DNA from: a virus
Taxonomy: Duplodnaviria; Caudoviricetes
Reading direction: 5' to 3' (one strand)
Length of the DNA stretch: 58,277 bases
Virus record (IMG/VR): IMGVR_UViG_3300025018_000174
Location: 1-58,277 of that record
The translations under genes were made by a program, and so were the position numbers. Shown here in pieces: positions 3,667 through 35,194 of the stretch (position 1 is the first letter of the stretch; every line of letters begins with the position of its first letter). The notes below the pieces were generated by a model, which was not told where the DNA came from, searched no databases, and saw nothing but the letters and a program-made list of their open reading frames with translations.

Positions 3667-4176
3667 ATGAACACCATCGAACAGAACCTCGAACGACTGG
3701 CGACGGCGTCCGAGCGTCAAGCGGTGGCACTGGAAGCGATCCTGGAAATCCTGGGTCGTCCCATGCCGCTTTTTGAAGTCACCGGGGGTGAACCCGTGGT
3801 GACCGTCGTCAACACCGTCGAGGCCCAGGATGAAGACACCACCGCCGCTGATCCCGAGCCCGAAGCTGCTGAAGAACCCGCGGCCGAAGAGCAAGCCGCT
3901 GAAGAAGCGCAGGAAGCCGGCGAAGCCGAAGGAGACCCCCTCGGAGACGATCCCCTCGGCGACGGTAACGGCGATGCTGAAGAGCTCGTGGCCCCGAAAG
4001 ACCTGACGACCGACGTCCTGCGCGGCAAGGCCCGCGAGCTGATGGACAAGGAAGGCAAGGCCGCGGTTTTCGAGGTCCTCGCCGAGGTCGGGAAGGGCTA
4101 CAAGGCGGTCGGTGAGGTCCCGAAGGAGGAACTGGCCGAGGCGTGGCTCAAGATGGCGAAACGCCTTCAGGGCTGA
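3667..4176 (+). CDS. Acidic phage protein of the type found upstream of DUF2800/DUF2815 replication modules
   Basis: GAGGAG RBS; acidic linker with GDPLGDDPLG; helical C-terminal domain. Confidence 0.7.
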   Translation: MNTIEQNLERLATASERQAVALEAILEILGRPMPLFEVTGGEPVVTVVNTVEAQDEDTTAADPEPEAAEEPAAEEQAAEEAQEAGEAEGDPLGDDPLGDGNGDAEELVAPKDLTTDVLRGKARELMDKEGKAAVFEVLAEVGKGYKAVGEVPKEELAEAWLKMAKRLQG

Positions 4177-4466
4177 CGCTTCGCGAGGTCAAGGAGCTAC
4201 GGGATAAAGCCCACAAGTCCTTTGACCGTATCTGGAAGCGGGGGCATATGTCGCGAAAGCAGGCCTACAAGTGGCTTGCCAAGTCTTTGCAGATGCCCCC
4301 GCACTCCACCCACATGTCAAAGATGTGGAGCGCCGAAATACTTGAACGGGTTATAGCGGTCAGCGACCAATACATTGGACGCACTGCCCTGGAAGAGGAC
4401 TTTGACGGCGAGCCACCCATCATAGGAGATCGTCATGTCCAACGGGCTAGTGTCCGTAAGTCTTGA
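4143..4466 (+). CDS. DUF3268-like protein (C-terminal part only)
   Basis: LR..AH..FD.IW...MSR..AY.WLA..L.....H motif; start uncertain. Confidence 0.6.
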   Translation: MAQDGETPSGLTLREVKELRDKAHKSFDRIWKRGHMSRKQAYKWLAKSLQMPPHSTHMSKMWSAEILERVIAVSDQYIGRTALEEDFDGEPPIIGDRHVQRASVRKS

Positions 4467-11372: not shown

Positions 11373-11954
11373 ATGGGCGTTGAAGGCTTGGCAAATCTCG
11401 ACTATGCCAAGCTGGAAAAGCGGGTCATGGCTCAGCTGTCCGAACAAGACTGGCTGGAGCATATCATGCGGGGTCACTGCGCCCTGACTGACATGCCCTT
11501 CACCGCTCTTGGCCAGCTGACCCCGCGTGGCGCTGACGGGCCGACCTATCATGAGCTTGGTGAGTTCCTGACGGGTAATGGCACTGTGTCTCTGTTCCGC
11601 GATGCCCCGCTGAAGATCGTGGGCAACAGCTACCGTGGAGCCGAGGCACAATCTGCCCTGCGGAACAAGAACGCCAACAACCGGGTCCTGGTAATCCGCG
11701 AGCCTGCCAATCCGCATGACAAGAATGCCTTGGCTGTGTTGGTCGCTCGCGGTCGTGCCGGTCTGGGGTGTGCCAGCTCGAAGTATGACTGGGTTCATGT
11801 CGGGTATATCCCGCGTGACGTGGCTGCTCAGCTTGCCCCGAAATGGCCGCACATGCATGGCGTTCCGGTCATTGCCGAAGGCACTCTGGCCTCGGCTCCG
11901 GCCCATGAGCGCGATCCCAAGATCAAGCTCACAGGTTGGCGCTTGTATCACTGA
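11373..11954 (+). CDS. HIRAN-domain protein
   Basis: IVGNSYR, REPANPHDKNALAV and VGYIPR motifs. Confidence 0.8.
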   Translation: MGVEGLANLDYAKLEKRVMAQLSEQDWLEHIMRGHCALTDMPFTALGQLTPRGADGPTYHELGEFLTGNGTVSLFRDAPLKIVGNSYRGAEAQSALRNKNANNRVLVIREPANPHDKNALAVLVARGRAGLGCASSKYDWVHVGYIPRDVAAQLAPKWPHMHGVPVIAEGTLASAPAHERDPKIKLTGWRLYH

Positions 11955-18407: not shown

Positions 18408-19547
18408 ATGACGAACAATGCTGCTGAAATCACGGGCGCTCAGCTTGATGCCGCCCTTCATTGTGCCATGACAGGGTCGTTCCCGGCGGGATACCTTGCC
18501 GCGGTGCACCGCTTCAACGAAGACCTGATCGGCTTGCCCATTCCGGAGCAGCCGACGCGTCTGCAGGAAGCTCGCAAGGAATGGGCGGCCACGGCTCTGT
18601 CCGAGGAAATCCATGAATTCATCACGGCGGAAAACCTTGCCGACGAGGCGGATGCATTGGTCGACTTGACCTACTTCGCCCTTGGCCGTCTCGTGGAAAT
18701 GGGCATCGTGCCCGGCCCGGCCTTCGAAGAAGTCCATGCTCGCAACATGGCCAAACGCCGTGGCACGCTGTCCAAGCGGCCGAACAGCTTGGGTTATGAT
18801 GCCGTGAAGCCCGAAGGCTGGACGGCCCCTGACATTGAGAAGTTCCTGGCCATCACGACCATCGATGTGCAGAAGCTCTTCGAGCAGCAGAAGGCGAACG
18901 CTCTGGCCTTGGCTGAAGAAGCGACCGCCGAGGCGCTGTCGGGCCTCGGCGTTCGGCCGAAGGTGCTCATTCTCGGACATGCTCGGCACGGCAAAGACAC
19001 GGTGGCTGAAATCCTTCGGGACCACTATGGCCTGTCCTTCGTGTCGAGCAGCCAGTTCTGCGCCGAGCGCGTCGTGTGGCCGATGGTCATGGATCACGAG
19101 AAAGCCTATGGCCATCATGTGGCCGCTGGTGAACCGGGCATGTCGGTTGACAAGCTCATGGAAGAGCTTGTGATGATGCAGCCGCTCTATGCCAACGCGG
19201 ACGACTGCTTCAAGGACCGTGGCAACTTCCGCCATGTCTGGTATTCCCTGATTGCCGCGTATTGCTGGCCCGACAAGGCTCGGCTGGCCCGCGAGATTTT
19301 CAAGGAAAACGACATCTATGTGGGCATCCGCAACTCGCGGGAATTCCACGCTGTCTACAATGCCGGCCTTGCCGACGTGGTGGTCTGGGTCGACGCCTCT
19401 GAACGGAAGGAACCGGAGAGCCCGGCCTCCTGCACGGTTGAGCCTTGGATGGCTCAGTTCGTGATCGACAACAACGGCACGCTGGAAGAGCTGGCCACCA
19501 ACGTCCACTCGCTCATGGCCGCTCTCGGCTTTGACCGCAAATCCTGA
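18408..19547 (+). CDS. Fusion of a MazG/PRA-PH-like NTP pyrophosphatase and a dNMP-kinase-like P-loop domain
   Basis: LSEEIHEF..DALVDLTYF..VHARNMAK..KPEGW, then LGHARHGKDT...IDNNGT. Confidence 0.8.
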   Translation: MTNNAAEITGAQLDAALHCAMTGSFPAGYLAAVHRFNEDLIGLPIPEQPTRLQEARKEWAATALSEEIHEFITAENLADEADALVDLTYFALGRLVEMGIVPGPAFEEVHARNMAKRRGTLSKRPNSLGYDAVKPEGWTAPDIEKFLAITTIDVQKLFEQQKANALALAEEATAEALSGLGVRPKVLILGHARHGKDTVAEILRDHYGLSFVSSSQFCAERVVWPMVMDHEKAYGHHVAAGEPGMSVDKLMEELVMMQPLYANADDCFKDRGNFRHVWYSLIAAYCWPDKARLAREIFKENDIYVGIRNSREFHAVYNAGLADVVVWVDASERKEPESPASCTVEPWMAQFVIDNNGTLEELATNVHSLMAALGFDRKS

Positions 19548-19556
19548 GGATTATCT

Positions 19557-20438
19557 ATGACCAGCTTCATGGCTTCTGTTCTCCAGCCGACGTTCAAGTT
19601 CCCGGACGTCTATGCTGACCTGCTCGAAACCCTCTGGACCGGCGACCCTGAACACGTCGTCACCGAGGTCAACAAGCGCACTGGCTCTGAAATCCGGGCG
19701 CTGAAGGGCGCAACGTCCTTCAAGCTTGACCTGTCCGACGACCGTGTGCCGGTGCCGGGCTATCGCAAGCTCCATCTGAAGACCGCCGCGGCCGAAGTGG
19801 CATGGTTTTTCCAGGGCTCCAAAGACGTCTCGTGGCTCCGCAAGTATGCACCCATCTGGGACAAGTTTGTGGAAGACGACGGTGTGACCATTGACGCTGC
19901 CTATGGCTATCGCTGGCGGCATCAGTTCGGCCGCGACCAAATGAAGCAGGCCATCACGGCGCTTCAAGTGAACCCGAGTGACCGGCGCATCTACATCTCC
20001 AACTGGGACCCGGGCTACGATGGCCTTGGGGCTTTCGGGCAGAAGAACGTTCCTTGCCCGGTCGGCTTCACTCTGTCGATCCTCGACGGCGCTCTGCACT
20101 CGACGCTTCTCATCCGGTCCTCCGATGTGTTCGTCGGGCTTCCGTATGACGTCGCCGGGCATGCGATCCTGATGGACACCGTGGCTGCTTCTCTGCCGGA
20201 CGTGGCACGGCTCGGCACCATGACCGTCACGCTGGCCCATCCGCACCTTTACGAAGCCCACTACGACATGACCAAGGAGCTTCTGCAGCAGGAGCCCGTC
20301 TATGACGCGCCCCATCTGCAGAATTGCCCGATCGACGAGCTGCTGGAAGACCCGGATGCCTTCGTCCAGGCCTACGGCGATGCTATGATCGGGCTGCCGG
20401 TGCCGGACTTCAATCCTCGGCCGGAGGTCATCCAGTGA
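19557..20438 (+). CDS. Thymidylate-synthase-fold enzyme, predicted dCMP methyl/hydroxymethyltransferase
   Basis: AYGYRWR, DRR, PC167, RSSDVFVGLPYD198 (Asp at the E. coli Asn177 position), HLY. Confidence 0.85.
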   Translation: MTSFMASVLQPTFKFPDVYADLLETLWTGDPEHVVTEVNKRTGSEIRALKGATSFKLDLSDDRVPVPGYRKLHLKTAAAEVAWFFQGSKDVSWLRKYAPIWDKFVEDDGVTIDAAYGYRWRHQFGRDQMKQAITALQVNPSDRRIYISNWDPGYDGLGAFGQKNVPCPVGFTLSILDGALHSTLLIRSSDVFVGLPYDVAGHAILMDTVAASLPDVARLGTMTVTLAHPHLYEAHYDMTKELLQQEPVYDAPHLQNCPIDELLEDPDAFVQAYGDAMIGLPVPDFNPRPEVIQ

Positions 20439-20935
20439 CAGACGATCTGACCAATTGGGACCTGCGGTTTCTCGGCCTTGCCGATCAAGCCCGCAGCTGG
20501 ACCAAGGGGCTCGGAGCAGGCGTTGACCGTGGGGTCGGCGCCTGCGTCGTCTCCCCGGATATGAGGCAACTGTCTCTTGGGTTCTCGGGCTTCCCAAGAG
20601 GCATTGACGACACACCGGAGCGCCTGGCAAGCAAGGAATACCGGGACTACCACACTGTGCACGCAGAGTTGAACGCCATTCTCAACGCCTCGTGTTCATT
20701 GGTCGGCTGGACCATGTATGCCACCACTTGTCCGTGTGCCCAGTGCAGCTCGGCAATCATCCAAGCTGGTATCTCGCGGGTGGTCTCGCCCTCGCCGGAC
20801 GCCACTTCGTCCTGGCATCGCAGTCAGCTGGAAGGTCGTGACAGCCTTCGTGAAGCTGGGGTGCTGGTGGTAACGTCCACACAGTTGCCGTTCCCCAAAA
20901 TCTGGGGCACCTACGGGAAAGGAAACAACGGATGA
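20435..20935 (+). CDS. dCMP deaminase family protein
   Basis: VGACVV, GFPRG, HAELNA and PCAQC motifs; GTGA overlap start. Confidence 0.9.
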   Translation: MTDDLTNWDLRFLGLADQARSWTKGLGAGVDRGVGACVVSPDMRQLSLGFSGFPRGIDDTPERLASKEYRDYHTVHAELNAILNASCSLVGWTMYATTCPCAQCSSAIIQAGISRVVSPSPDATSSWHRSQLEGRDSLREAGVLVVTSTQLPFPKIWGTYGKGNNG

Positions 20936-21129
20936 GCCCTGAAGCTCGTGTAGCCTTCATTCACGCCCAGTGTGTATCAGCGCTGGCTCGTATTGAGGGC
21001 ATGAAAGCTGAAAACCAGCATCGGCTTTCGCTTGGGCATTCCATTGCCTACGACGCCGCGGCATTCTTTGCCGTGGAAAACGAATACATGATCGGGCACA
21101 ACGCGGTCATCGAATACTTGAGGGGCTGA
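20932..21129 (+). CDS. Hypothetical protein
   Basis: ATGA overlap; operon packing. Confidence 0.65.
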   Translation: MSPEARVAFIHAQCVSALARIEGMKAENQHRLSLGHSIAYDAAAFFAVENEYMIGHNAVIEYLRG

Positions 21130-21130
21130 C

Positions 21131-21655
21131 ATGAAACTTCTGATGGCAGTGAGCCGGAATGGCTATGTGGCAAAAGGCCCAGTTGACGACATGACCTGGA
21201 CCGGCCCGGACGACAAAGCGGTGTTCAAGCTGCTGACAAGCACAGGCGACATTCTTGCCGCTTCCGCTCAGACGGTCGAGCAGATGCCTTCTACCCTGGA
21301 AGGCCGCGGTCAACTGTATGCCCTTTCGCGTGACCCGCGCAAGGGCGTGCAACTTGAAGACTTGGCGCCTATGGCTCCGAACGCATGGCTGCTTGGTGGT
21401 CCTACCATTGCCATGTATGCTCTGCGGAATGGCTTTGTTGACCGGGTATTCCTTTCCATTGTGCCGGCTCAAATCGACGTCGACCAACACCCGGATGCAA
21501 TCGAAGATCAGGTCCGGCCGTATTTGGAGGCCCGTGGCTATCGCCCCGGCAAGTCAGTCTGGTGGAACCGGTCCTTGCGGGTCACGGTTGGCCAAGTCAT
21601 GGTTGAGTGCTGGACACGTGACAGCGCTCTGAATGAAGAGGCAGTGCGGCGATGA
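21131..21655 (+). CDS. Dihydrofolate reductase-like protein
   Basis: MAVSRNG, DMTW...D...FK.LT, LSR and LLGG motifs. Confidence 0.75.
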   Translation: MKLLMAVSRNGYVAKGPVDDMTWTGPDDKAVFKLLTSTGDILAASAQTVEQMPSTLEGRGQLYALSRDPRKGVQLEDLAPMAPNAWLLGGPTIAMYALRNGFVDRVFLSIVPAQIDVDQHPDAIEDQVRPYLEARGYRPGKSVWWNRSLRVTVGQVMVECWTRDSALNEEAVRR

Positions 21656-22101
21656 GCAAGATCAGTGAAAGCACTCTCTGGAACAGCGGCCTGTATCCCT
21701 CGCTTCGTAAGATGCGGGGGCTTCATGTTGGGCGGATCGAGAATGCCGTCAGCTCAGGGCTTCCGGACGTGGAAGGCTGTTATCAGGGCCACCAGTTTTG
21801 GTGGGAGCTGAAGACTGGCACACGCCCTGTCAACGCCTCGTCCAAGACCGTAGGCTGGAAAATCCGGCCAGCGCAGAAAGTCTGGCACCCGAAACGCTGG
21901 AAAGCTGGTGGTCTCAACTTCTTTCTGTTCCAGCTGGAGAGCAGGCATGACAAGCGCCTGTTTCTCATCCCTGGGTTTCATTCTCTGCGGCTTGCCGAAG
22001 GGGCCACGGAGCAACAACTTGAAGAGATGGCGTGCCTTGTTGGCCGTCCGTCTCCGGAGGCACTGGTGGAGTTCTCCATCAGCTATGAAAGGGAGAGCTG
22101 A
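21652..22101 (+). CDS. PD-(D/E)xK endonuclease (Holliday-junction resolvase/VRR-NUC-like)
   Basis: E..RIEN....GLPD......WELK...RPAQ..W...GG motif. Confidence 0.75.
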   Translation: MSKISESTLWNSGLYPSLRKMRGLHVGRIENAVSSGLPDVEGCYQGHQFWWELKTGTRPVNASSKTVGWKIRPAQKVWHPKRWKAGGLNFFLFQLESRHDKRLFLIPGFHSLRLAEGATEQQLEEMACLVGRPSPEALVEFSISYERES

Positions 22102-22430
22102 TGGACCTGAGGATCAATATTGCTGGTTCGTCATTCCGTGATGGCGCCAAGGAAGCGATCAGCAGCCTCAAGCATGGGCAAACGCTTAGGCTTGAACGCG
22201 AGCCGAAAAACCCCTATGACAAGAATGCCGTAGCCATCTACTTGGATGGCTACGTGGAAGGGCGGCGCAAGCCTCGGACAATCCAGCTTGGCTACGTGCC
22301 GCAGAAGTGGTCCGGCACGGTCTCGGCGGCTATGGACAGCAATCGCTATCACGTCTGGGCATCCAAAGTTGGAATGCTTTGGGGCGAGGTTCTGATTAAG
22401 TGGGTTGACATGTCTCTCGATCCGCTGTAA
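22101..22430 (+). CDS. HIRAN-domain protein (second copy)
   Basis: IAGSSFR, REPKNPYDKNAVAI and LGYVP motifs. Confidence 0.85.
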   Translation: MDLRINIAGSSFRDGAKEAISSLKHGQTLRLEREPKNPYDKNAVAIYLDGYVEGRRKPRTIQLGYVPQKWSGTVSAAMDSNRYHVWASKVGMLWGEVLIKWVDMSLDPL

Positions 22431-22908: not shown

Positions 22909-23289
22909 ATGACCCGCATCAACTGTGTGCCGCCCGAAGAACTGACGCGTGAGCATTTGGTCGCCGAGTATCGTGAGCTTCCTCGCGTCTTCGGCATGAC
23001 CCTTGGCATGATCAAGCGTGGGGTTAATCACCCCACGCTTGCTGCCATTCCGCCGACGTATCGCATGGGCACTGGCCATATGGCTTTCTTCACCAACAAG
23101 CTCGGCTATTTGGTGAAGCGTCAAAAAGCCCTGGTAGCTGAAATGCAGCGCCGGGGCTATACACCCAACTTCACCGACCCGGAAAGCCTGCTTAATGGCA
23201 TTCCGGAAATTTGGCACGGCGACTGGGAACCGGACGCTGAAGCTCTGCGCATCAGCCGTGCCCGTATTGCAGAAAGGCTTGCGGGATGA
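22909..23289 (+). CDS. denV: Pyrimidine-dimer DNA glycosylase (T4 endonuclease V family)
   Basis: MTRIN, HLVAEYRELPRVF, Y.MGTGH..FF..KL.YL..R and EM..RG motifs. Confidence 0.9.
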   Translation: MTRINCVPPEELTREHLVAEYRELPRVFGMTLGMIKRGVNHPTLAAIPPTYRMGTGHMAFFTNKLGYLVKRQKALVAEMQRRGYTPNFTDPESLLNGIPEIWHGDWEPDAEALRISRARIAERLAG

Positions 23290-23618: not shown

Positions 23619-23652
23619 TGAAAGTATGAAGAGACAACCTGAGAAGACAACC

Positions 23653-24087
23653 ATGTCCAGAGACAAATCCCACAACAAGCGCTTCACCTCGACGGACCCC
23701 AAAGTCATCGAGCTGGCCCACGACCTTCGCCGGTTTGGCGACGACTTCCGTCTTCGCATGTCAGCGCTGGAGCGGAAATACCGCGAGGAGCATGACCGCG
23801 TGGTGAAGGAAGCCCAAGCGGAGCATGACCGCGTGGTGAAGGAAGCCCAAGCGGAGCAGGAAGCCAAGTTCAAGGCCATTGCCGAGGTCATGAACCTTGG
23901 TGCGGACTATCACGGCGGCCCGGACTGGACGCTGGACATCGGCAACCTCCTCGATGGCGAGGTGACGCTGAAGTATGAAGCGGACACCTGCGACTGCCCG
24001 GTCTGCCAACTTCGCCACAAGCTGAAGACCGGAATGGTGGCCGAAGATGCCGTCGATCAGGTCCTCGGCACCCGTCAGGTGCACTGA
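23653..24087 (+). CDS. Hypothetical coiled-coil protein with CDCPVC
   Basis: Follows a promoter-like element at 23589-23619. Confidence 0.65.
   Translation: MSRDKSHNKRFTSTDPKVIELAHDLRRFGDDFRLRMSALERKYREEHDRVVKEAQAEHDRVVKEAQAEQEAKFKAIAEVMNLGADYHGGPDWTLDIGNLLDGEVTLKYEADTCDCPVCQLRHKLKTGMVAEDAVDQVLGTRQVH
23787..23858 (+). repeat. 33-bp in-frame tandem repeat (two copies plus a partial)
   Basis: ggagcatgaccgcgtggtgaaggaagcccaagc x2, encoding EHDRVVKEAQA. Confidence 0.9.
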
Positions 24088-24090
24088 ACC

Positions 24091-24360
24091 ATGCACGCGT
24101 GGCTCCGCTTCACTGCCGAGCCTCTTGACAACGAGGCTCTGGGCGATCTGATTGAGGATCGCCCTGACGATCTGATCCTGCTCGACGGACAACCGTTTGA
24201 TGCCAGTGATCTGTGCACCTGCGACGGCTGTAACCTGTTCTTCCGCACGCGAAACGACCTTGATGAAGACGGGCTCTGCGAAGATTGCGCCCGGGAAGCT
24301 GACGAGGAAGCCGAGCACATCAGGATTGAGCGCGCCATCTACCGTCGCTCTGTGCTTTAG
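24091..24360 (+). CDS. Hypothetical acidic Zn-finger-like protein
   Basis: CDGC...CEDC. Confidence 0.55.
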   Translation: MHAWLRFTAEPLDNEALGDLIEDRPDDLILLDGQPFDASDLCTCDGCNLFFRTRNDLDEDGLCEDCAREADEEAEHIRIERAIYRRSVL

Positions 24361-24440
24361 AAGGCACGGCATTTAGCATCGCCGGTTTCCCATAACCGGC
24401 GATGCGTTATGCTATAAGCTCTATTCCTCATGAGGTCAAC

Positions 24441-29199: not shown

Positions 29200-32100
29200 T
29201 CACCTGTAAACGATTTCTTCCCCCGGGTAACCCCGACCGACCTGAGCGCTGATTTGATAGACACGGAACTTCAGAGAGGAAGATTGGAGGGCCCCAAAGT
29301 CCGCAGTTTGCATCGCCGCGGTGTAAGTATACGCCGGGGAAGTCAGGCTTGTAACCTCACGAACCACTGTTGTCCCTGCCAGTATTTCAAGGTCATAAAG
29401 TTCGCTCTCTTCATTCAACGGCACTTCGGGCACGTCCCAGCTATCGCCATTCAGGCGAGTGCGGCGCATCCAAGTCAGATTGATGTCATTGGTGCCAGTA
29501 TCCCAAGCCCCGGCAAAGTTTACCGGAGAGTAGGGCTTCAGAGCCACGCTTTCAAAGACAAAGTCCCCTTCCGTGTAAACGGTATCATCGTCCACGGACT
29601 TGGCAGCGTTGCCCCACCGAAGTGTGATGTCGGAGCCACGATCGCCAATCGAGATGGGCAGATACGACGCCACATTGGGATCAATAGCCATTTCATCGGT
29701 CAGCAGAACCACATTGGACCCAGCCGGAATGGGGTTGCGCATGGCATGCTCCGTGCCAAGCTGGCCACGGAGAAGTTGAGAGCAGGTATAGTTCTTCGGA
29801 GACGTGAGCGTCGCCGTCACGAACTGAAGGATTTCCCACGAGCCATCTTGGTTCTGCACGGCCATAGCATTGGCGCCGTTGAGAACCTGATCTTCTGTCT
29901 TGTTCGCCAGCGTGCCAGTATACATTTCCACGTATACCGAATTGCCGGTATCCCAGACACCAGTCGGGCCACTGTAAAGGTCCTGAGTGAGCCGACCAAG
30001 GAACGACCGGCTTCCAACCGAGCGCACCAAGTCCCAACCGCCAGAGCCATCTTCCCGATACACGGCAACAGCACCCGGCCACGGGTCCATCCAGACTGCG
30101 ACCCGAGGAGCCCACGGGCTGGGCTCGGTTCCCGTCAGTAACGGAATATCCATCGGCACCATGATGGCATAGCCCGGCGCCCACGGAATTTGCGGGATAT
30201 ACTCCTGGACCGGGTAAGAGGGCAGGCGGAACAGGGAACTGTCAAAGTTGACAAATTCCGCTTGGCGGAACTCTGCGGTGTTGATCTGCTGGAACCGGCC
30301 TGTGGCAGTCCGGGACCCAACCGAATAGACAAAGCCATCACCGGGGTCAAAGCGGAACATGGAGGGCGGCAGGTTTACCGTCCCTTGCTCGCGAGCCGTC
30401 CAGGCTTGGTGGATGATACTGTCGGCAAGGCCCCGCACATAGTGCGCTTCCAAGACAATGGGCAATTGAAGGCTGGCAACGTTCAAGCTGCTCCCAAAGG
30501 AGCGTTTGCCGTCAAGGCTCGCCACCGCATAGTCATTGTCACCATCCACATAGTCAATCTTGACCGCCGACGGCAACTCGGTGTCCTGGGTGCGAGTAAC
30601 CGAGAACCCGGTTTTGTCCGAGGTGGTGCTGACGTAATCGTCAGAAGACAGGGCCGTCACCGAAGTCGAGGAACGGAGGGCAAACTTGAGCTTCCCTTCG
30701 CTTTCAAAGGCATCAAACATAAAGGCACCCATGAGCGAGGAAATCATATCCCTCACTGCCATGATGCTTTCAATGTTGAAGCCCTTAACCAGGGCTTGCG
30801 ATCCGTTGAGAAGCGTGGTGTCCACGTCCGTGACGCCAACAGAGGCGCACAGTTCCTCGATCAGACGCGGCAGAGACACAGCGTCCAAGCGGCCAGTCAG
30901 CCAATGGCCATACCTCCACAATGCGTTGTCCGACCAAACATCGGAACGCAGAGGGTAGTCAGGGTAGGGCCGAGCATCCCAGCACCAGATGAGGATGTTT
31001 TCCAGCGAAATCATCTCGTCGCCGTAGACAGCACTGGTCGGCGAGTTATCCCGCCAATACTGCAGAGAGGCCTCGATGAAGACCCGCTGGATATACTCGT
31101 CCTGCTCTCCCGTAGAGTAATACGGGAAGAAGCTCTCCGACGACTTGGGATCGTAGAAGACGTTGGGCTGGTTCGGGCCCTTGTCAATGGCCGGGCAACC
31201 AAGTTCCGTGAACCAGATAGGCTTGGACTGCGGCACCCACGAAGTGTTGGAGCCGCTTTCCACCCCTGCCGGACGGTTCCTGTGGTTGTTCAGCCACCAG
31301 TTGCGAATGTCCTTCTGCCGGAACACCCACGGCTTGCTGTAAGCCACATCAACAATTGGGGTTCGGACTTGGTTGTCCCGATCCGATTGGCTGGCGTAAT
31401 ACCAGTCATAGAATTCCCCGCCTTCGATGTTGGCCTTCAGGTATTCGTGGTTGTGGGGTGACACGATATTGTTGGTCGGGTCATAGTCAAGGTGATTGAC
31501 CCCGTCCCGCCAGTCTGCAAGGGGCATATAGTTGTCAATACCAATGAAGTCAATGCTTGCATGGGACCACAGCGGGTCCAAGTTGAAGTAGACGTCATTG
31601 GTGCCGTCGTTCGGACGGTAGGAATGGTATTCGGACCAGTCAGCAGTATACCCAACCTTGGTTCCGGAGCCGACAATGGCTTTCACGTCCGTGGCAAGGG
31701 TCTGAAGACGTGTCACTGCAGGAAAGGCTGAGGCCGACGACCGAATGGACGTCATACCTACCATTTCCGAGCCAATGACAAAGCCATCCACACCCCCTGC
31801 GGCAGCGCACAGGTTGGCATAGTGCAGGATCATACGCCGAAGGCCCCAGGTGCCGTTGAAGAAGTTGGTGACCTGGGTGGAAGCGGTAGCAGTCTTGTCC
31901 ACTGTTCCGGTATAGCCTGCCGCCGGGCTGCAGGTAATCCGACCGCGCCAGGGGAAGACAGGCTGGCCAACCGTGGCGGCGTTGTTGCTATAGGGGTTCG
32001 GCAGCGTGTTTCCGGGCGGAATGTCCATGAAGATGAACGGGTAGAACACAACCCGATAACCCTTGTTCTTCAGCCAGATAATGGCTTCTGTCACCACGCT

Positions 32101-33204
32101 GTCCGAAGGCGTTCCGCCATAAAGCGGCCGGCCCTCAGTATCAAGCGAGACTTGGGGCACATCGTCACGATAGAGGCCATCGACCATCCACTCGCTCGGA
32201 GTGACGACGGCGCCCCGGTTGTTAAATTCCACTTTCGGCTTGATGGTGCAGTTGCCAATCCGCAGATCGTCACCAAACCAGCCCACCACAAGAGCCACGG
32301 TCTCCATGTTGTCCTGGAACAATCCAAGCTGTTCCATTGACCGCACAAAGTCGGGCTTCTGTTCCATGTTGTGGACGTTCATGGACTTGGCAGGCGAAGT
32401 GCTGGTCGGGCCAAACAGCGGCAAGCCAAGCTTGTCAGCCACACCAGCTGAAGCAGCGCCGGACTGCTGGACATACTCCTGGGAGCCATAGATGAATTCC
32501 CCCGAGCCCGGGATCAAGCAGACCCCGCGCATGATTTGGGAGATGTCATCAGGGTCCGTGGTCACCAGCGGGCGAATGATTTCCGCCGTGATTTGGGGAA
32601 TGCGGTTGCCGTAGTCCGTCAGCACCAGGTCTTCCAGCACCAAATAAGTGATGCCCCGGAAAGCCGGGGTCTTGTTGGCGCCTTCGATCGACTGGATCAG
32701 AGTATCGGGGGTCTGGCTTTCCGTGCCACGGTAGAACCGCCAGTTCATGGACCCAATGTCCACTTCCTTGCCGTCCATCCAGACACGACCCAGCTGAGTT
32801 TTGCGGTTGCCCTCGCCAAAGGCAATGGCCAGCGACACCGAGTAGGTATAGGTTGTGGTGGTGACCTTCTGCCCGCCACCGCCTTTACCACCAACGCGCT
32901 CGGTCTCCTTGGTGACCGTCTCCTTGAAGCGGGTGCACCAGATCACTTGGCCATTGACACGCATGCGCCCATAAAGACGGCCTACAGGGGCTCCCTCGGA
33001 GGAACCCATGAAGGCAGTCTCTTGAAGGCGAGGGCCTTCAACACGTTGAGCAGGCGAAAGTGCCGAGATAAGGGCTCGGTCAATGTAGCCCCCGACAAAG
33101 CTACCAACCATGCCTCCGATAGCTGCACCAGAGAACCCAAGGATAGCACCCCCAAATCCGCCGCCAATTGCCGTGCCAACGGCGCCAAGAATGAGGGTTG
33201 CCAT
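29200..33204 (-). CDS. GTA-like baseplate multidomain 'megatron' protein (GTA TIM-barrel plus phage-tail domain)
   Basis: MATLILGA..., EGPRL, GVCLIPGSGEF, YGGTPSD, YTADWSEY and WDARPYP motifs. Confidence 0.9.
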   Translation of the reverse strand: MATLILGAVGTAIGGGFGGAILGFSGAAIGGMVGSFVGGYIDRALISALSPAQRVEGPRLQETAFMGSSEGAPVGRLYGRMRVNGQVIWCTRFKETVTKETERVGGKGGGGQKVTTTTYTYSVSLAIAFGEGNRKTQLGRVWMDGKEVDIGSMNWRFYRGTESQTPDTLIQSIEGANKTPAFRGITYLVLEDLVLTDYGNRIPQITAEIIRPLVTTDPDDISQIMRGVCLIPGSGEFIYGSQEYVQQSGAASAGVADKLGLPLFGPTSTSPAKSMNVHNMEQKPDFVRSMEQLGLFQDNMETVALVVGWFGDDLRIGNCTIKPKVEFNNRGAVVTPSEWMVDGLYRDDVPQVSLDTEGRPLYGGTPSDSVVTEAIIWLKNKGYRVVFYPFIFMDIPPGNTLPNPYSNNAATVGQPVFPWRGRITCSPAAGYTGTVDKTATASTQVTNFFNGTWGLRRMILHYANLCAAAGGVDGFVIGSEMVGMTSIRSSASAFPAVTRLQTLATDVKAIVGSGTKVGYTADWSEYHSYRPNDGTNDVYFNLDPLWSHASIDFIGIDNYMPLADWRDGVNHLDYDPTNNIVSPHNHEYLKANIEGGEFYDWYYASQSDRDNQVRTPIVDVAYSKPWVFRQKDIRNWWLNNHRNRPAGVESGSNTSWVPQSKPIWFTELGCPAIDKGPNQPNVFYDPKSSESFFPYYSTGEQDEYIQRVFIEASLQYWRDNSPTSAVYGDEMISLENILIWCWDARPYPDYPLRSDVWSDNALWRYGHWLTGRLDAVSLPRLIEELCASVGVTDVDTTLLNGSQALVKGFNIESIMAVRDMISSLMGAFMFDAFESEGKLKFALRSSTSVTALSSDDYVSTTSDKTGFSVTRTQDTELPSAVKIDYVDGDNDYAVASLDGKRSFGSSLNVASLQLPIVLEAHYVRGLADSIIHQAWTAREQGTVNLPPSMFRFDPGDGFVYSVGSRTATGRFQQINTAEFRQAEFVNFDSSLFRLPSYPVQEYIPQIPWAPGYAIMVPMDIPLLTGTEPSPWAPRVAVWMDPWPGAVAVYREDGSGGWDLVRSVGSRSFLGRLTQDLYSGPTGVWDTGNSVYVEMYTGTLANKTEDQVLNGANAMAVQNQDGSWEILQFVTATLTSPKNYTCSQLLRGQLGTEHAMRNPIPAGSNVVLLTDEMAIDPNVASYLPISIGDRGSDITLRWGNAAKSVDDDTVYTEGDFVFESVALKPYSPVNFAGAWDTGTNDINLTWMRRTRLNGDSWDVPEVPLNEESELYDLEILAGTTVVREVTSLTSPAYTYTAAMQTADFGALQSSSLKFRVYQISAQVGRGYPGEEIVYR

Positions 33205-33207
33205 ACT

Positions 33208-33642
33208 CTAGCCTCCTTTGTCAGGGAACCGGAAGGCCGCAACGACCTTTGGCTCCCACATTGCCCCCAGCTCAACTTCGTAGACCTTACGCCCACTGTG
33301 CGCGTGCACCATAGTCTTTTCAGTCGTCATGATGCCGCAGTGCTGGGCTACGGCATTCGGGTGAACCCTGAAAGCAAGAACCACACCTGGGCCCCGAGCA
33401 CTTGCTTCCACTTCATGCAGATAAGCCCTTGCCGTGTCCAGCAAGAGCTCCTCATCCTTATTGCGGCCGGACCATCGAGCCGAATAGACAGGCACCGGAG
33501 GCAGGGGCAAATTGTTGAGCTCAGCCCATACTCCCCTCACCAGCCCAATGCAATCACATCCAGCACCTTTGACTGCCGCCATGTTATGATACGGCGTGCC
33601 AATCCAGGAGCGAGCCAGTTTTGCGACTTCCTCATCGATCAT
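33208..33642 (-). CDS. NlpC/P60 tail peptidase (RcGTA g14-like)
   Basis: ARSWIGTPY, GCDCIGLVRGVW, HCGI and HA motifs. Confidence 0.9.
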   Translation of the reverse strand: MIDEEVAKLARSWIGTPYHNMAAVKGAGCDCIGLVRGVWAELNNLPLPPVPVYSARWSGRNKDEELLLDTARAYLHEVEASARGPGVVLAFRVHPNAVAQHCGIMTTEKTMVHAHSGRKVYEVELGAMWEPKVVAAFRFPDKGG

Positions 33643-34547
33643 GTTGCATCATCGTTGGTAAAGAGGGAACCGCCGTTCAAGTTGGCTTCGCCGGAGGTCG
33701 GGTAGAACAGAAGCATGTCCTGGCCAGGGATGAGGTTGAAGCCACGGAAGTTTGTGATGTTGGCAAACTTCTCTTGGCAAGTCTCCGCGTCCTGCTTGCA
33801 CCCTGCGGTGATCGTGAAGGCTTCGCCGATCGACACGTCAAAGGGCATGGGTTGCCACAGCTCAATGGTGACGGTCCCAAACGCGGAGTTGTGCTGCTTC
33901 ACTTCCATGCGCTGGTTATCATTTGCCCCAGTGGTGAAGGTCAGCACTCCGGCAGTGAACCAGTCGTCTGTGAAGGCGCCAAGGCCCGAAACGGTGAACA
34001 CACGGCTGCTTGCCACTGAGGCCACAGTGCCCGAGCCCGAATAGGCCGGGTCAGAAAGGTTGACCTTGCAGCGGGAGTCTCCGACAACGGCGTCACAGTA
34101 GCGCTGATACTTGCGCCCGGTCTTCTGTTGAAGGGCGTTTGCCAAGCCCCGAAGCTCTGCCGAGAACGCCAAGCCATTGCGCTTGACTTCCCCGATGGTG
34201 CCACGGTTCACAAGGTGCCGCTGAGTGACATCTGACCAGTTCACCCAGTAGAGCTCGATCACGGCCCCGTCATACACGCCTCGGGCCAGATCGTCCTCGT
34301 TGATGGTGGCATCGCTGAGGGCCCCTTCAACTTCAAGGTTGTCCACCGCCAAGCCAAGGCTCTGTGCCACTTGAGTGGCCGTAAAGCCAGCATAGGCAAT
34401 ATAGGTCACGCTGTCAAACGTGAGAGGGTTGTCATGGTCCGTGAAGCCCTGAACCACACCATCCGTACGAGTGAGCTTCCAGCAATAGCACATCTTGGTG
34501 GCACGGCTCTCAAGGTGAGCCTGCAGATTGGGGTCAAGCTGTTTCAT
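33639..34547 (-). CDS. DUF2163 baseplate hub (RcGTA g13-like)
   Basis: CW..TR.DG...GFTDHD, CDAVVGD.RC, GC....C..KF.N..NFRGF motifs. Confidence 0.9.
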   Translation of the reverse strand: MKQLDPNLQAHLESRATKMCYCWKLTRTDGVVQGFTDHDNPLTFDSVTYIAYAGFTATQVAQSLGLAVDNLEVEGALSDATINEDDLARGVYDGAVIELYWVNWSDVTQRHLVNRGTIGEVKRNGLAFSAELRGLANALQQKTGRKYQRYCDAVVGDSRCKVNLSDPAYSGSGTVASVASSRVFTVSGLGAFTDDWFTAGVLTFTTGANDNQRMEVKQHNSAFGTVTIELWQPMPFDVSIGEAFTITAGCKQDAETCQEKFANITNFRGFNLIPGQDMLLFYPTSGEANLNGGSLFTNDDAT

Positions 34548-35194
34548 GCCAAGCTCCCCAGGGTCGTCTTCACTTCAATGATGTCGATTTGCGGAACCGA
34601 GCCAGCGTTGAATTGCTCCACGCTAATGGTCAGCTCATCTTGGTTGAACCGCACGGGCACATCGAATTCAAAGCCAGCTTTGATGACATGCCCGTTTGCC
34701 GGGGCGGTGTTGAAGTTGATGATGCCGGTCGTGGTGTCCAGCACATACGACCCGCCGCTCACCAGAGCTCCGTTCACTTCGACCAATACAGTGCCACTCA
34801 CCGGCTTGGTGATGTTGCGGGTATAGGTGAACCCGCCGGAGCTGTAGACCTTCTTCAGCTGGAACTTGCGCTGAGTGCCATTGCCCGTGCCAATGATTTG
34901 GTCGGTGCGAGCCACGGCCGTTCCGGGCGGACAGGACTTGTAGTCCAGCCAGTCTTTCCACCGAAAGCCATATAGGCTCCCCAGGCGAGCTTCCCAGAAC
35001 TCAGCCACCGCATAGACGTCGTTGATGTTCCGCAGCCCAAGGCCTGCGTCGTAAGAACGACGGGAGTCACCCCAAACGGAGTTGCGTTCCTCATAACCCG
35101 AACGCAGGGTGACAATATCTGTCCTCCGGCGCGGACCGCCGGAGGAACCTTTGCTGATGCTGTCGGGGAACCGAACCTCGTGAAAGTCTGCCAT
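34544..35194 (-). CDS. DUF2460 distal tail protein (RcGTA g12-like)
   Basis: FHEVRFP, GGP.RRT, GFRWKDW.DYKS and AGFEFDVPVRF motifs. Confidence 0.92.
   Translation of the reverse strand: MADFHEVRFPDSISKGSSGGPRRRTDIVTLRSGYEERNSVWGDSRRSYDAGLGLRNINDVYAVAEFWEARLGSLYGFRWKDWLDYKSCPPGTAVARTDQIIGTGNGTQRKFQLKKVYSSGGFTYTRNITKPVSGTVLVEVNGALVSGGSYVLDTTTGIINFNTAPANGHVIKAGFEFDVPVRFNQDELTISVEQFNAGSVPQIDIIEVKTTLGSLA

Follow-up and report, generated by a model that had tools for sequence, protein, structure and literature searches.

Here we report on a compact group of genes at positions 18408-21655 of the virus record IMGVR_UViG_3300025018_000174 (Caudoviricetes), the whole of which, 58,277 bases, is referred to below as the window. 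In order, these genes encode a protein in which a MazG-like domain is joined to a P-loop kinase-like domain, a homologue of thymidylate synthase (TS), a zinc deaminase of the dCMP deaminase family, a small protein of 65 residues and a divergent, probable dihydrofolate reductase (DHFR); a conserved 149-residue protein follows directly downstream (Table 1). The genes are packed as one operon: a gap of 9 nt precedes the TS gene, the TS and deaminase genes overlap in the sequence GTGA, the deaminase gene overlaps the 65-residue open reading frame (ORF), 1 nt separates this frame from the DHFR gene, and the DHFR gene overlaps the gene for the 149-residue protein. An earlier note on this DNA had proposed that a modified-cytosine pathway is disguised here as a thymidylate operon; the analysis presented below argues for such a pathway, with 5-methylcytosine (5mC) as its predicted product.

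The TS homologue, which is the sole match to PF00303 in the record, contains the stretch ...LLIRSSDVFVGLPYDVAGH... and reads ...KNVPCPVGF...IRSSDVFVGLPYDVAGH... around its active site. The earlier note had placed Asp198 where E. coli ThyA has Asn177, and had read PCP in place of PCH at the catalytic cysteine. Both readings hold: phmmer against solved TS structures sets 'vpCPvgf' of the query on 'ppCHaff' and 'glpyDvag' on 'gvpfNias', and a MAFFT alignment with E. coli ThyA sets Asp198 on N177 and Pro168 on H147, with Cys167-Pro168 on Cys146-His147. In ThyA numbering, Asp at 177 and Pro at 147 recur in 120 of 120 database homologues (P0121-P0240, 47-96% identical, among 729 matches to the TS homologue) as well as in the enzymes of phages Xp12, PaMx74 and RDJL3; Asn stands at 177 in all five dUMP-type references (E. 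coli ThyA, T5 thy, SIOphi, pertopsoe and Chuck). The pair Asp177/Pro147 is a trait of the family and neither a one-off nor a sequence error. The catalytic set of PF00303 (E58, W80, Y94, C146, R166, D169, H207 and Y209) is kept in the window and in 120/120 homologues. A search of IMG/VR with the single TS protein returned only 1 locus, and the protein database, together with a profile search of IMG/VR with the fusion protein, was used in its place.

These residues bear directly on the reading that the annotation of relatives invites, namely an ordinary thymidylate operon in which a dCMP deaminase supplies dUMP, TS converts it to dTMP and DHFR recycles the folate. The genes of relatives are labelled 'thymidylate synthase' and 'dCMP deaminase', the window proteins belong to the same Pfam families, and the papers on phages AXL1 and R5C describe the canonical pathway. 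Against this, the ThyA residues Asn177, His147 and Leu143 are all replaced in the window, by Asp, Pro and Asn respectively, the first two of them consistently across the homologues. Positions 177 and 147 are the two that best tell apart the TS homologues on cytosine-modified and on unmodified contigs, and N-to-D mutagenesis is cited as switching the preference of TS from dUMP to dCMP (eLife PMC8670742; this and the other numbered sources are cited throughout from those parts of their text available to us). Furthermore, the Xp12 orthologue yielded 5-methyl-deoxycytidine (5mdC) when it was assayed in vivo in E. coli together with T4 gp1 (bioRxiv 10.1101/2024.12.05.627091). An ordinary thymidylate operon is scarcely credible in the light of these data.

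Asp at position 177 is common to gp42 of phage T4, which raises a different alternative: that the window encodes a gp42-like dCMP hydroxymethylase and that the phage DNA carries 5-hydroxymethylcytosine. An acidic residue (Asp or Glu) at the position of ThyA Leu143, three before the catalytic Cys, has been linked to hydroxymethylation (PMC6400193; PMC13326640), and hydroxymethylases are also described as having a Ser two residues before a conserved Tyr (Ser-x-Tyr) and as missing the C-terminal tail (PMC6400193). Because the loop ahead of the catalytic Cys was displaced in the L-INS-i alignment, with Ala or Gly falling in the column of residue 143, the residue was instead counted directly three positions before the Cys. 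Counted in this way, the window has Asn164, and Asn is likewise found in Xp12, PaMx74, RDJL3 and 119 of the 120 homologues (Ser in the other one); the position is Asp in T4 gp42 (Asp145), pertopsoe and Chuck, and Leu in E. coli, T5 and SIOphi. The window has Ala at the position of T4 Ser94 (column of ThyA residue 92), and its C-terminal tail, ...NPRPEVIQ, aligns with the C-terminus of ThyA. Moreover, the enzyme is 51% identical to that of Xp12 in the MAFFT alignment (47% by tblastn over 99% of the length), compared with 30% to ThyA and 21% to gp42; as a hydroxymethylase it would leave the DHFR encoded without any reductive TS, and no glucosyl- or other transferase was found among the scanned ORFs. 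What speaks for hydroxymethylation, beside the common Asp, is the attachment of T4 gp42 next to the window clade in the phylogenetic tree and the polar character of Asn164, which may not fully exclude water. On balance we consider a hydroxymethylase very unlikely.

The active site is also unusual in its own right, with Asn, Pro, Phe, Ser and Tyr at positions 143, 147, 83, 168 and 176 in the window, Xp12, PaMx74 and RDJL3 alike, and the residues at 83, 143, 147 and 168 differ from those of ThyA. Such a set might allow another C5 product, for example 5-hydroxy-dCMP (5hodCMP) or one so far undescribed, and the 5hodCMP synthases are themselves a recent and unexpected chemistry of the TS superfamily (PMC13326640). 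However, 5-hydroxylation to 5hodCMP is tied to D169N (NAR PMC13326640), and the window retains Asp190 at this position, where the synthases of the RB69/DLP3 type have Asn. The Xp12 enzyme carries the same residue set with 5mdC as its reported product, and no transferase genes to use a hydroxyl handle were found among the scanned ORFs. We give a product of this kind next to no weight.

A FastTree phylogeny of 50 sequences (10 references and every third of the 120 homologues, with 80 left out) places the window, Xp12, PaMx74, RDJL3 and 40 homologues in one clade of 44 with an SH-like support of 0.758; the smallest clade that holds both the window and the Xp12 enzyme has a support of 0.913. The comparison with ThyA, T4 gp42 and the Xp12 enzyme that the earlier note had called for therefore groups the window with Xp12, apart from the dTMP synthases and the hydroxymethylases. 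In the assay that yielded 5mdC with the Xp12 enzyme, five of seven metagenomic Asp-type TS homologues also gave 5mdC, and the DNA of Xp12 and PaMx74 is described as having C wholly replaced by 5mC (bioRxiv 10.1101/2024.12.05.627091). Because the residue pattern of Xp12 is present in full, because the protein lies in the Xp12 clade and because the Xp12 enzyme has a reported 5mdC product, we predict that the TS homologue is a dCMP C5-methyltransferase. The Xp12-like conversion of dCMP to 5-methyl-dCMP (5mdCMP) envisaged in the earlier note is thus supported at the level of sequence, where the residues, the clade, the gene set and the absence of the marks of hydroxymethylases and 5-hydroxylases agree.

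The neighbouring genes named in the earlier note were recovered by profile searches. Translation of the deaminase most likely begins at a GTG overlapping the TS stop, with GGAGG upstream. Its PF00383 match is accompanied by a match to phrog_174 (E 1.9e-37), its best match in the PDB is the PBCV-1 dCMP/dCTP deaminase (7FH4, E 7.2e-15), with the HAE and PCxxC motifs aligned, and it is 37% identical to the deaminase of Xp12. The window thus presents the context of the mSCD proteins, that is, a PF00383 protein with zinc motifs beside an Asp177 TS homologue. The DHFR matches the phrog_13578 family of DHFRs (Table 1); nine of its ten matches in the PDB are DHFRs (best 6cxm, E 1.2e-4), RibD_C is matched below its Pfam cut-off (E 5.8e-4), and the protein is 37% identical to the DHFR of Xp12. 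The DHFR of AXL1, which is approximately 91% identical to that of Xp12, raised minimal inhibitory concentrations of trimethoprim (AXL1 paper).

The logic that connects such a TS with a deaminase, and the frequent presence of PRA-PH nearby, are already in print (eLife PMC8670742; bioRxiv 10.1101/2024.12.05.627091), PRA-PH being among the five domains most often co-localised with these deaminases (bioRxiv 10.1101/2024.12.05.627091). The same preprint reports that selectivity for 5mC is sporadic within the dCMP_cyt_deam_1 family, and that mSCD-B5, the one characterised deaminase of such a context, needs triphosphates. The earlier suggestion that the deaminase draws thymidine nucleotide from the methylated pool fits this published logic, but the step itself is refined: since mSCD-B5 is reported to need triphosphates, the deaminase may act on 5mdCTP to give dTTP, and not on 5mdCMP to give dTMP.

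Six-frame searches of the record revealed no second TS or ThyX and no C5 DNA methylase. The Pfam scan, which covered 68 ORFs (eight small or doubtful ORFs of the 73-ORF list lay outside it), yielded no glycosyltransferase, methyltransferase or dioxygenase, in keeping with the earlier note, which had recognised no glycosyltransferase or other hypermodification gene. Given the absence of these genes among the scanned ORFs, plain 5mC is expected rather than a hypermodified base. A DHFR encoded without any other TS fits reductive methylation, and the lack of a dUMP-type TS of the phage's own accords with the proposal, already in print, of a deaminase that draws on the methylated pool to supply thymidine nucleotide.

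The last point could be taken further, to a pathway in which 5mdCMP is only an intermediate on an alternative route to thymidine and the packaged DNA contains ordinary C or is only partly substituted. The deaminase gene is translationally coupled to that of the TS homologue, a phage with neither a dUMP-type TS nor ThyX needs some source of dT unless it relies on its host, a deaminase beside an Asp177 TS homologue is given a role in dTTP production (bioRxiv 10.1101/2024.12.05.627091), and no dCTP-excluding enzyme has been demonstrated. Yet Xp12 and PaMx74, with the same cassette, are the phages reported to be fully substituted, and the DNA of AXL1 is resistant to enzymes whose sites contain G/C (AXL1 paper). 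A MazG domain is present in the operon of all relatives, and a kinase joined to that domain would have no evident purpose unless 5mdCMP went on to the triphosphate. A purely thymidine-directed pathway is therefore unlikely, and incorporation of 5mC into the phage DNA is the reading that we pursue below.

The fusion protein most likely starts at ATG 18408, as the earlier note had it: an RBS-like GAGAGGA (a presumptive ribosome-binding site) lies upstream, the 94%-identical homologue P0001 has 379 residues, and the ESM Atlas record of the protein begins at residue 10 in the numbering of the 388-residue ORF, which is used here. The whole length matches phrog_38514 (E 1.9e-113). Its AlphaFold2 model has a predicted local distance difference test (pLDDT) score of 86.7, with the P-loop domain formed by the C-terminal ~200 residues mostly above 90. 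The N-terminal domain matches Pfam PRA-PH (E 1.2e-13, 51.7 bits against a cut-off of 21.3) and, over residues 27-174, phrog_18404, labelled 'hydrolase' (E 6e-44). For this domain, a profile search of the PDB finds the NTP pyrophosphohydrolase 3nl9 (E 1.1e-11) and DR2231 (E 4e-10), and Foldseek likewise returns DR2231 (E 1.8e-4, template modelling (TM) score on the target 0.59-0.71). Residues E76, E79, D91 and D95, which we take to be the metal ligands of the domain, are invariant in 35/35 sequences. On these sequence grounds the assignment of the N-terminal domain as a MazG-like all-alpha NTP pyrophosphohydrolase appears solid; that it serves as a dCTPase, and so in dCTP exclusion, we only infer. 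Searches of the open-access literature for Xp12 with dCTPase, or for phage MazG with 5mC and dCTP, found nothing relevant.

The C-terminal domain carries the invariant residues G199, H203, G204, K205 and D206, the Walker A motif of the P-loop NMP-kinase fold. It matches the deoxynucleoside monophosphate (dNMP) kinase family phrog_139 (E 5.1e-10) over residues 169-217 only, that is, at the P-loop, and Pfam DNMK matches 7 of 35 fusion homologues at E<=0.01 (best 2.3e-5). The best kinase found by Foldseek is the dNMP kinase of T4 (1DEK; E 1.4e-3 but TM 0.36), with dephospho-CoA kinases and Cmk next, and the ESM Atlas gives, as a lead only, a value of 0.97 to viral clusters named 'Deoxynucleotide monophosphate kinase family protein'. 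A phmmer search of the PDB with the kinase half found nothing beyond the P-loop of adenylate kinase 8 (E 0.038), a match that was set aside. We judge a dNMP-kinase-like identity likely, with appreciable room for doubt. Of the fusion described in the earlier note, the MazG-like pyrophosphatase and the P-loop domain are therefore confirmed, and the kinase family of the latter is likely rather than settled.

A profile search of IMG/VR with the fusion protein, in which 80 of 528 confirmed loci were kept, gave 14 loci with the fused protein and 66 with a stand-alone homologue of the kinase domain. An Asp169/Asp177 TS lies within 5 kb in all 14 fused loci, as does the gene for the 149-residue protein, and the deaminase and the DHFR are each present in 12 of them. 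Among the stand-alone loci, many of them on short contigs, 65 of 66 have no TS in the fetched flank, and one has an Asp-type TS with a deaminase. From these contexts the kinase domain appears to belong to a widespread viral family and its fusion to MazG to be specific to the cassette. The stand-alone homologues (IMG/VR loci L029-L094) have ~165-175 residues, are 42-50% identical to the window domain and are common in viral contigs.

Taken together, these data suggest a model for the pathway. The MazG-like domain would hydrolyse dCTP, and perhaps dUTP, to the monophosphate. The TS homologue would then use methylene-tetrahydrofolate to methylate dCMP reductively to 5mdCMP with the release of dihydrofolate, a step proposed because of its homology to the tested Xp12 enzyme and its Asp177 and Pro147. 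The fused kinase domain may phosphorylate 5mdCMP, and host NDP kinase could complete the synthesis of 5mdCTP for use by the phage PolA. The deaminase would turn part of the pool of 5-methyl-dC nucleotides into thymidine nucleotide, replacing the missing dUMP-specific TS, probably at the level of the triphosphate by analogy with the tested mSCD-B5, and the DHFR would recycle the dihydrofolate. The virion DNA expected from this model has C largely or wholly replaced by 5mC, with no further decoration. We consider it probable that the cassette is an Xp12/PaMx74-type pathway of this kind, building 5mC DNA at the nucleotide level.

Several observations weigh against this interpretation. A bulky hydrophobic residue three positions before the Cys is linked to methyl products (PMC13326640), and the window has Asn there, so the published rule for methylation fits the window only by half. 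The TS homologue and the tested Xp12 enzyme are identical at only about half of their positions, 2/7 Asp-type TS homologues gave no 5mdC (bioRxiv 10.1101/2024.12.05.627091), and the support of the clade (0.758) is moderate, with T4 gp42 as a neighbouring long branch. In the window protein itself Pfam DNMK (PF21448) matches only the P-loop region and falls below its cut-off (E 0.0098, 15.9 bits against 27.1), and hhalign of the fusion alignment with T4 gp1 reaches a probability of 24% over 21 columns, which is no proof of family membership. The DHFR, similarly, falls below the Pfam cut-off for DHFR_1 (E 0.0068, 16.6 bits against 25). DR2231, a dUTPase and the nearest solved relative of the MazG domain, was crystallised with dUMP and a dUTP analogue according to the titles of its entries. 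A six-frame search found no Tet_JBP, a weak negative in that the control search was also silent. Finally, the record is linear with an estimated completeness of 96% (CheckV), so a gene could be missing from it.

We conclude that the window cassette belongs to the known Xp12/PaMx74-type 5mC cassettes, to which it is an uncultured addition. What is modestly new is the MazG-kinase fusion, which is common to RDJL-like phages and absent from Xp12 and PaMx74; neither a function for the MazG protein nor the kinase fusion of the RDJL-like lineage appears in the text of the eLife paper or the preprint available to us. This two-in-one enzyme would take the steps that flank the methylase, dCTP to dCMP before it and 5mdCMP to 5mdCDP after it. 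A broader proposal can be put forward only tentatively, as somewhat less than an even prospect: that a whole, largely uncultured lineage of siphophages with gene transfer agent (GTA)-like tails, including RDJL, RcSimone-Hastad and RcRudolph, packages DNA in which C is replaced by 5mC, channelling its cytosine nucleotides through methylation by means of a two-in-one MazG-dNMP kinase.

Two further genes accompany the cassette. The ORF of 65 residues matches phrog_14827, a family of unknown function (E 1.7e-4), and gave no match in the Pfam search. The 149-residue protein matches phrog_2165, labelled 'DNA helicase' (Table 1), and has no Pfam match at E<=0.1 and no sequence match in the PDB at E<=10; genes of like size and position are annotated in Xp12, PaMx74 and RDJL3. 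By eye, its sequence ...LPDVEG...WWELK... resembles the motif of PD-(D/E)XK nucleases, and the protein may be a nuclease linked to the pathway. A contig of 20.3 kb in run X11 spans the whole cassette with 76 differences from the window and is longer than it by 251 letters at the exact junction of the TS stop with the deaminase gene (window positions 20438/20439); RDJL3 has an ORF of 88 residues at the same junction.

The window takes in the entire IMG/VR record. Its left half, on the + strand, is a module for replication and nucleotide metabolism in which Pfam scans identified a primase-polymerase, an exonuclease, a ligase, a PD-(D/E)XK/DUF2800 nuclease, an Enc34-type single-stranded DNA-binding protein, PolA and a helicase, as well as two HIRAN proteins, a pyrimidine-dimer glycosylase and a ribonucleotide reductase of 761 residues. 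Structural genes of siphovirus type occupy the middle, on the - strand, and include GTA-like tail genes, whose sequences point to an alphaproteobacterial host. Two competing ORFs, at 23626-24087 (+) and 23761-24372 (-), overlap on opposite strands with coding-like GC content at third codon positions in both; the + ORF, the one of the pair that was scanned, matches neither Pfam nor PHROG. The window has little DNA similarity to deposited phages: its first 25 kb reach a megablast coverage of <=6%, and the cassette finds its best match in Roseobacter phage RDJL3 (68.5% over 54% of the cassette). The window phage, which is uncultured, is a siphophage with relatives among the RDJL and Rhodobacter phages.

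Table 1. Positions of the cassette genes, their domains and key codons, and other features of the window.
Feature	Position	Strand	Remarks
MazG-like + P-loop kinase-like fusion protein, 379 aa	18408-19547	+	ATG 18408; the longer ORF from ATG 18381 has 388 aa
MazG-like pyrophosphohydrolase domain	18459-18902	+	residues ~27-174 (388-aa numbering)
P-loop kinase domain	18948-19544	+	residues ~190-388; GHARHGKD P-loop, C-terminal DNNGTLEEL motif
TS-superfamily enzyme, predicted dCMP C5-methyltransferase (5mdCMP synthase), 293 aa	19557-20438	+	PF00303 E 6.5e-42
Key codons of the TS homologue	Asn164 20046-20048; Cys167 (TGC) 20055-20057; Pro168 (CCG) 20058-20060; Asp190 20124-20126; Asp198 (GAC) 20148-20150	+	
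dCMP-deaminase-family zinc deaminase, candidate 5mC-selective, 166 aa	20435-20935	+	PF00383 E 2.3e-16; GTG start
Small ORF without assigned function, 65 aa	20932-21129	+	translationally coupled between deaminase and DHFR
Dihydrofolate reductase, probable and divergent, 174 aa	21131-21655	+	phrog_13578 DHFR E 7.9e-40
Conserved 149-aa protein	21652-22101	+	start overlaps DHFR stop; outside 18408-21655, co-conserved with the cassette; phrog_2165 E 7.8e-27
HIRAN-domain proteins, two separate	11373-11954 and 22101-22430	+	replication module
T4 endonuclease V-like pyrimidine-dimer glycosylase	22909-23289	+	replication module
GTA-like tail module	29200-35194	-	GTA_TIM E 1.3e-141, DUF2460, phiJL001 Gp84_N, BR0599, NlpC/P60, DUF2793

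The 21 listed runs with the window phage are stored as contigs and include metagenomes from aquifer, groundwater, wastewater and freshwater; they record occurrence only and have no bearing on modification or expression. The settings are groundwater, freshwater and wastewater rather than marine, despite the alphaproteobacterial-looking tail genes of the phage. Contigs of the phage are also present in RNA-labelled libraries (run X16), where their presence is no proof of transcription.

If the proposed pathway is correct, the window phage and many metagenomic relatives carry restriction-resistant, fully 5mC DNA; protein databases hold more than 400 homologues of the fusion protein, mostly of ~364 residues, and more than 700 of the TS homologue. 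This would bear on restriction digests of viromes, on bisulfite and enzymatic methyl-sequencing and on nanopore basecalling, and would carry the reach of Xp12-type chemistry beyond Xanthomonas and Pseudomonas phages to alphaproteobacterial-looking phages of groundwater, freshwater and wastewater. Re-annotation is warranted because the records of cultured relatives label these genes as ordinary thymidylate synthesis. The fused protein would be a candidate for both the dCTP-excluding pyrophosphatase and the kinase that activates 5mdCMP, and deaminases of such contexts are of value as tools for 5mC sequencing (bioRxiv 10.1101/2024.12.05.627091).

A comparison with T4 highlights a common logic. 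In T4 (gp56 dCTPase/dUTPase, gp42, gp1, Cd and Frd), as in the window by its genes alone, dCTP depletion is combined with a TS homologue that has Asp at N177 and acts on dCMP, a dedicated dNMP kinase, a deaminase and a DHFR, and the kinase domain of the window resembles gp1 in its P-loop, ...GKD, and its C-terminal ..N(D/N)G(S/T)LEEL motif. The window differs from T4 in its predicted product, which is methyl rather than hydroxymethyl (no Asp three before the Cys, tail present), in having the pyrophosphatase and the kinase in one protein, and in having no glucosyltransferases and no separate Td; its MazG pyrophosphatase and T4 gp56 belong to different families. The deaminase resembles mSCD-B5 in being a dCMP_cyt_deam_1 member that adjoins an Asp177 TS homologue, which was the criterion of the IMG/VR screen from which that work drew, and in having PBCV-1 7FH4 as the closest solved structure, a likeness by description rather than by direct comparison of sequences (bioRxiv 10.1101/2024.12.05.627091).

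The cassette of Xp12 (MT664984) is annotated as 'hydrolase (HAD superfamily)', thymidylate synthase, dCMP deaminase and DHFR, and has relatives in PaMx74, PaMx28, AXL1 and DLP4 (Pamexvirus/Bosavirus). The window and Xp12/PaMx74 agree in the order and orientation of the MazG, TS, deaminase, DHFR and ~148-149-residue genes, downstream of PolA and helicase. The TS homologues of the window and Xp12 have in common Asp177, Pro147, Asn three before the Cys and a ...PEVI(E/Q) tail, and the MazG domain of the window is 46% identical to the Xp12 'hydrolase' over 145 residues. In contrast to the fusion protein, the MazG proteins of Xp12 and PaMx74 have 245-257 residues with PRA-PH as their only Pfam match and correspond to the window protein only in its first ~145 residues; no homologue of the window kinase domain was found in either genome at E<=0.01. 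The window further differs from the Xp12 group in its GTA-like tail genes, in showing little similarity of DNA and in the 65-residue ORF between deaminase and DHFR. In Xp12, the ORF directly upstream of the MazG protein (3756-4238), annotated as hypothetical, matches HhH-GPD base-excision glycosylases (E 5.1e-7).

The closest overall synteny is with RDJL3 (OK283305), the RDJL phages and the Rhodobacter phages RcSimone-Hastad and RcRudolph being the wider set of relatives. RDJL3 and its Rhodobacter relatives are annotated with the canonical thymidylate pathway, and the open-access literature that we searched is silent on modified DNA in RDJL phages. In RcSimone-Hastad and RcRudolph (MW677525, OP009285), an orthologue 49% identical to the PF00303 protein of the window is annotated 'ThyX-like thymidylate synthase', which looks like a mislabel. 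The TS proteins of the window and RDJL3 are only 42-47% identical, and the 88-residue ORF between the TS and deaminase genes of RDJL3 is missing from the window. Common to both is the succession of PolA, helicase, two hypothetical genes, the fusion gene (a 364-residue 'Cof hydrolase' in RDJL3), TS, deaminase, DHFR and a gene of ~150 residues, followed by HIRAN, endonuclease V-like and ribonucleotide reductase genes. RDJL3 also has the MazG-kinase fusion, 58% identical to that of the window over its full length, and a TS homologue with the same diagnostic residues.

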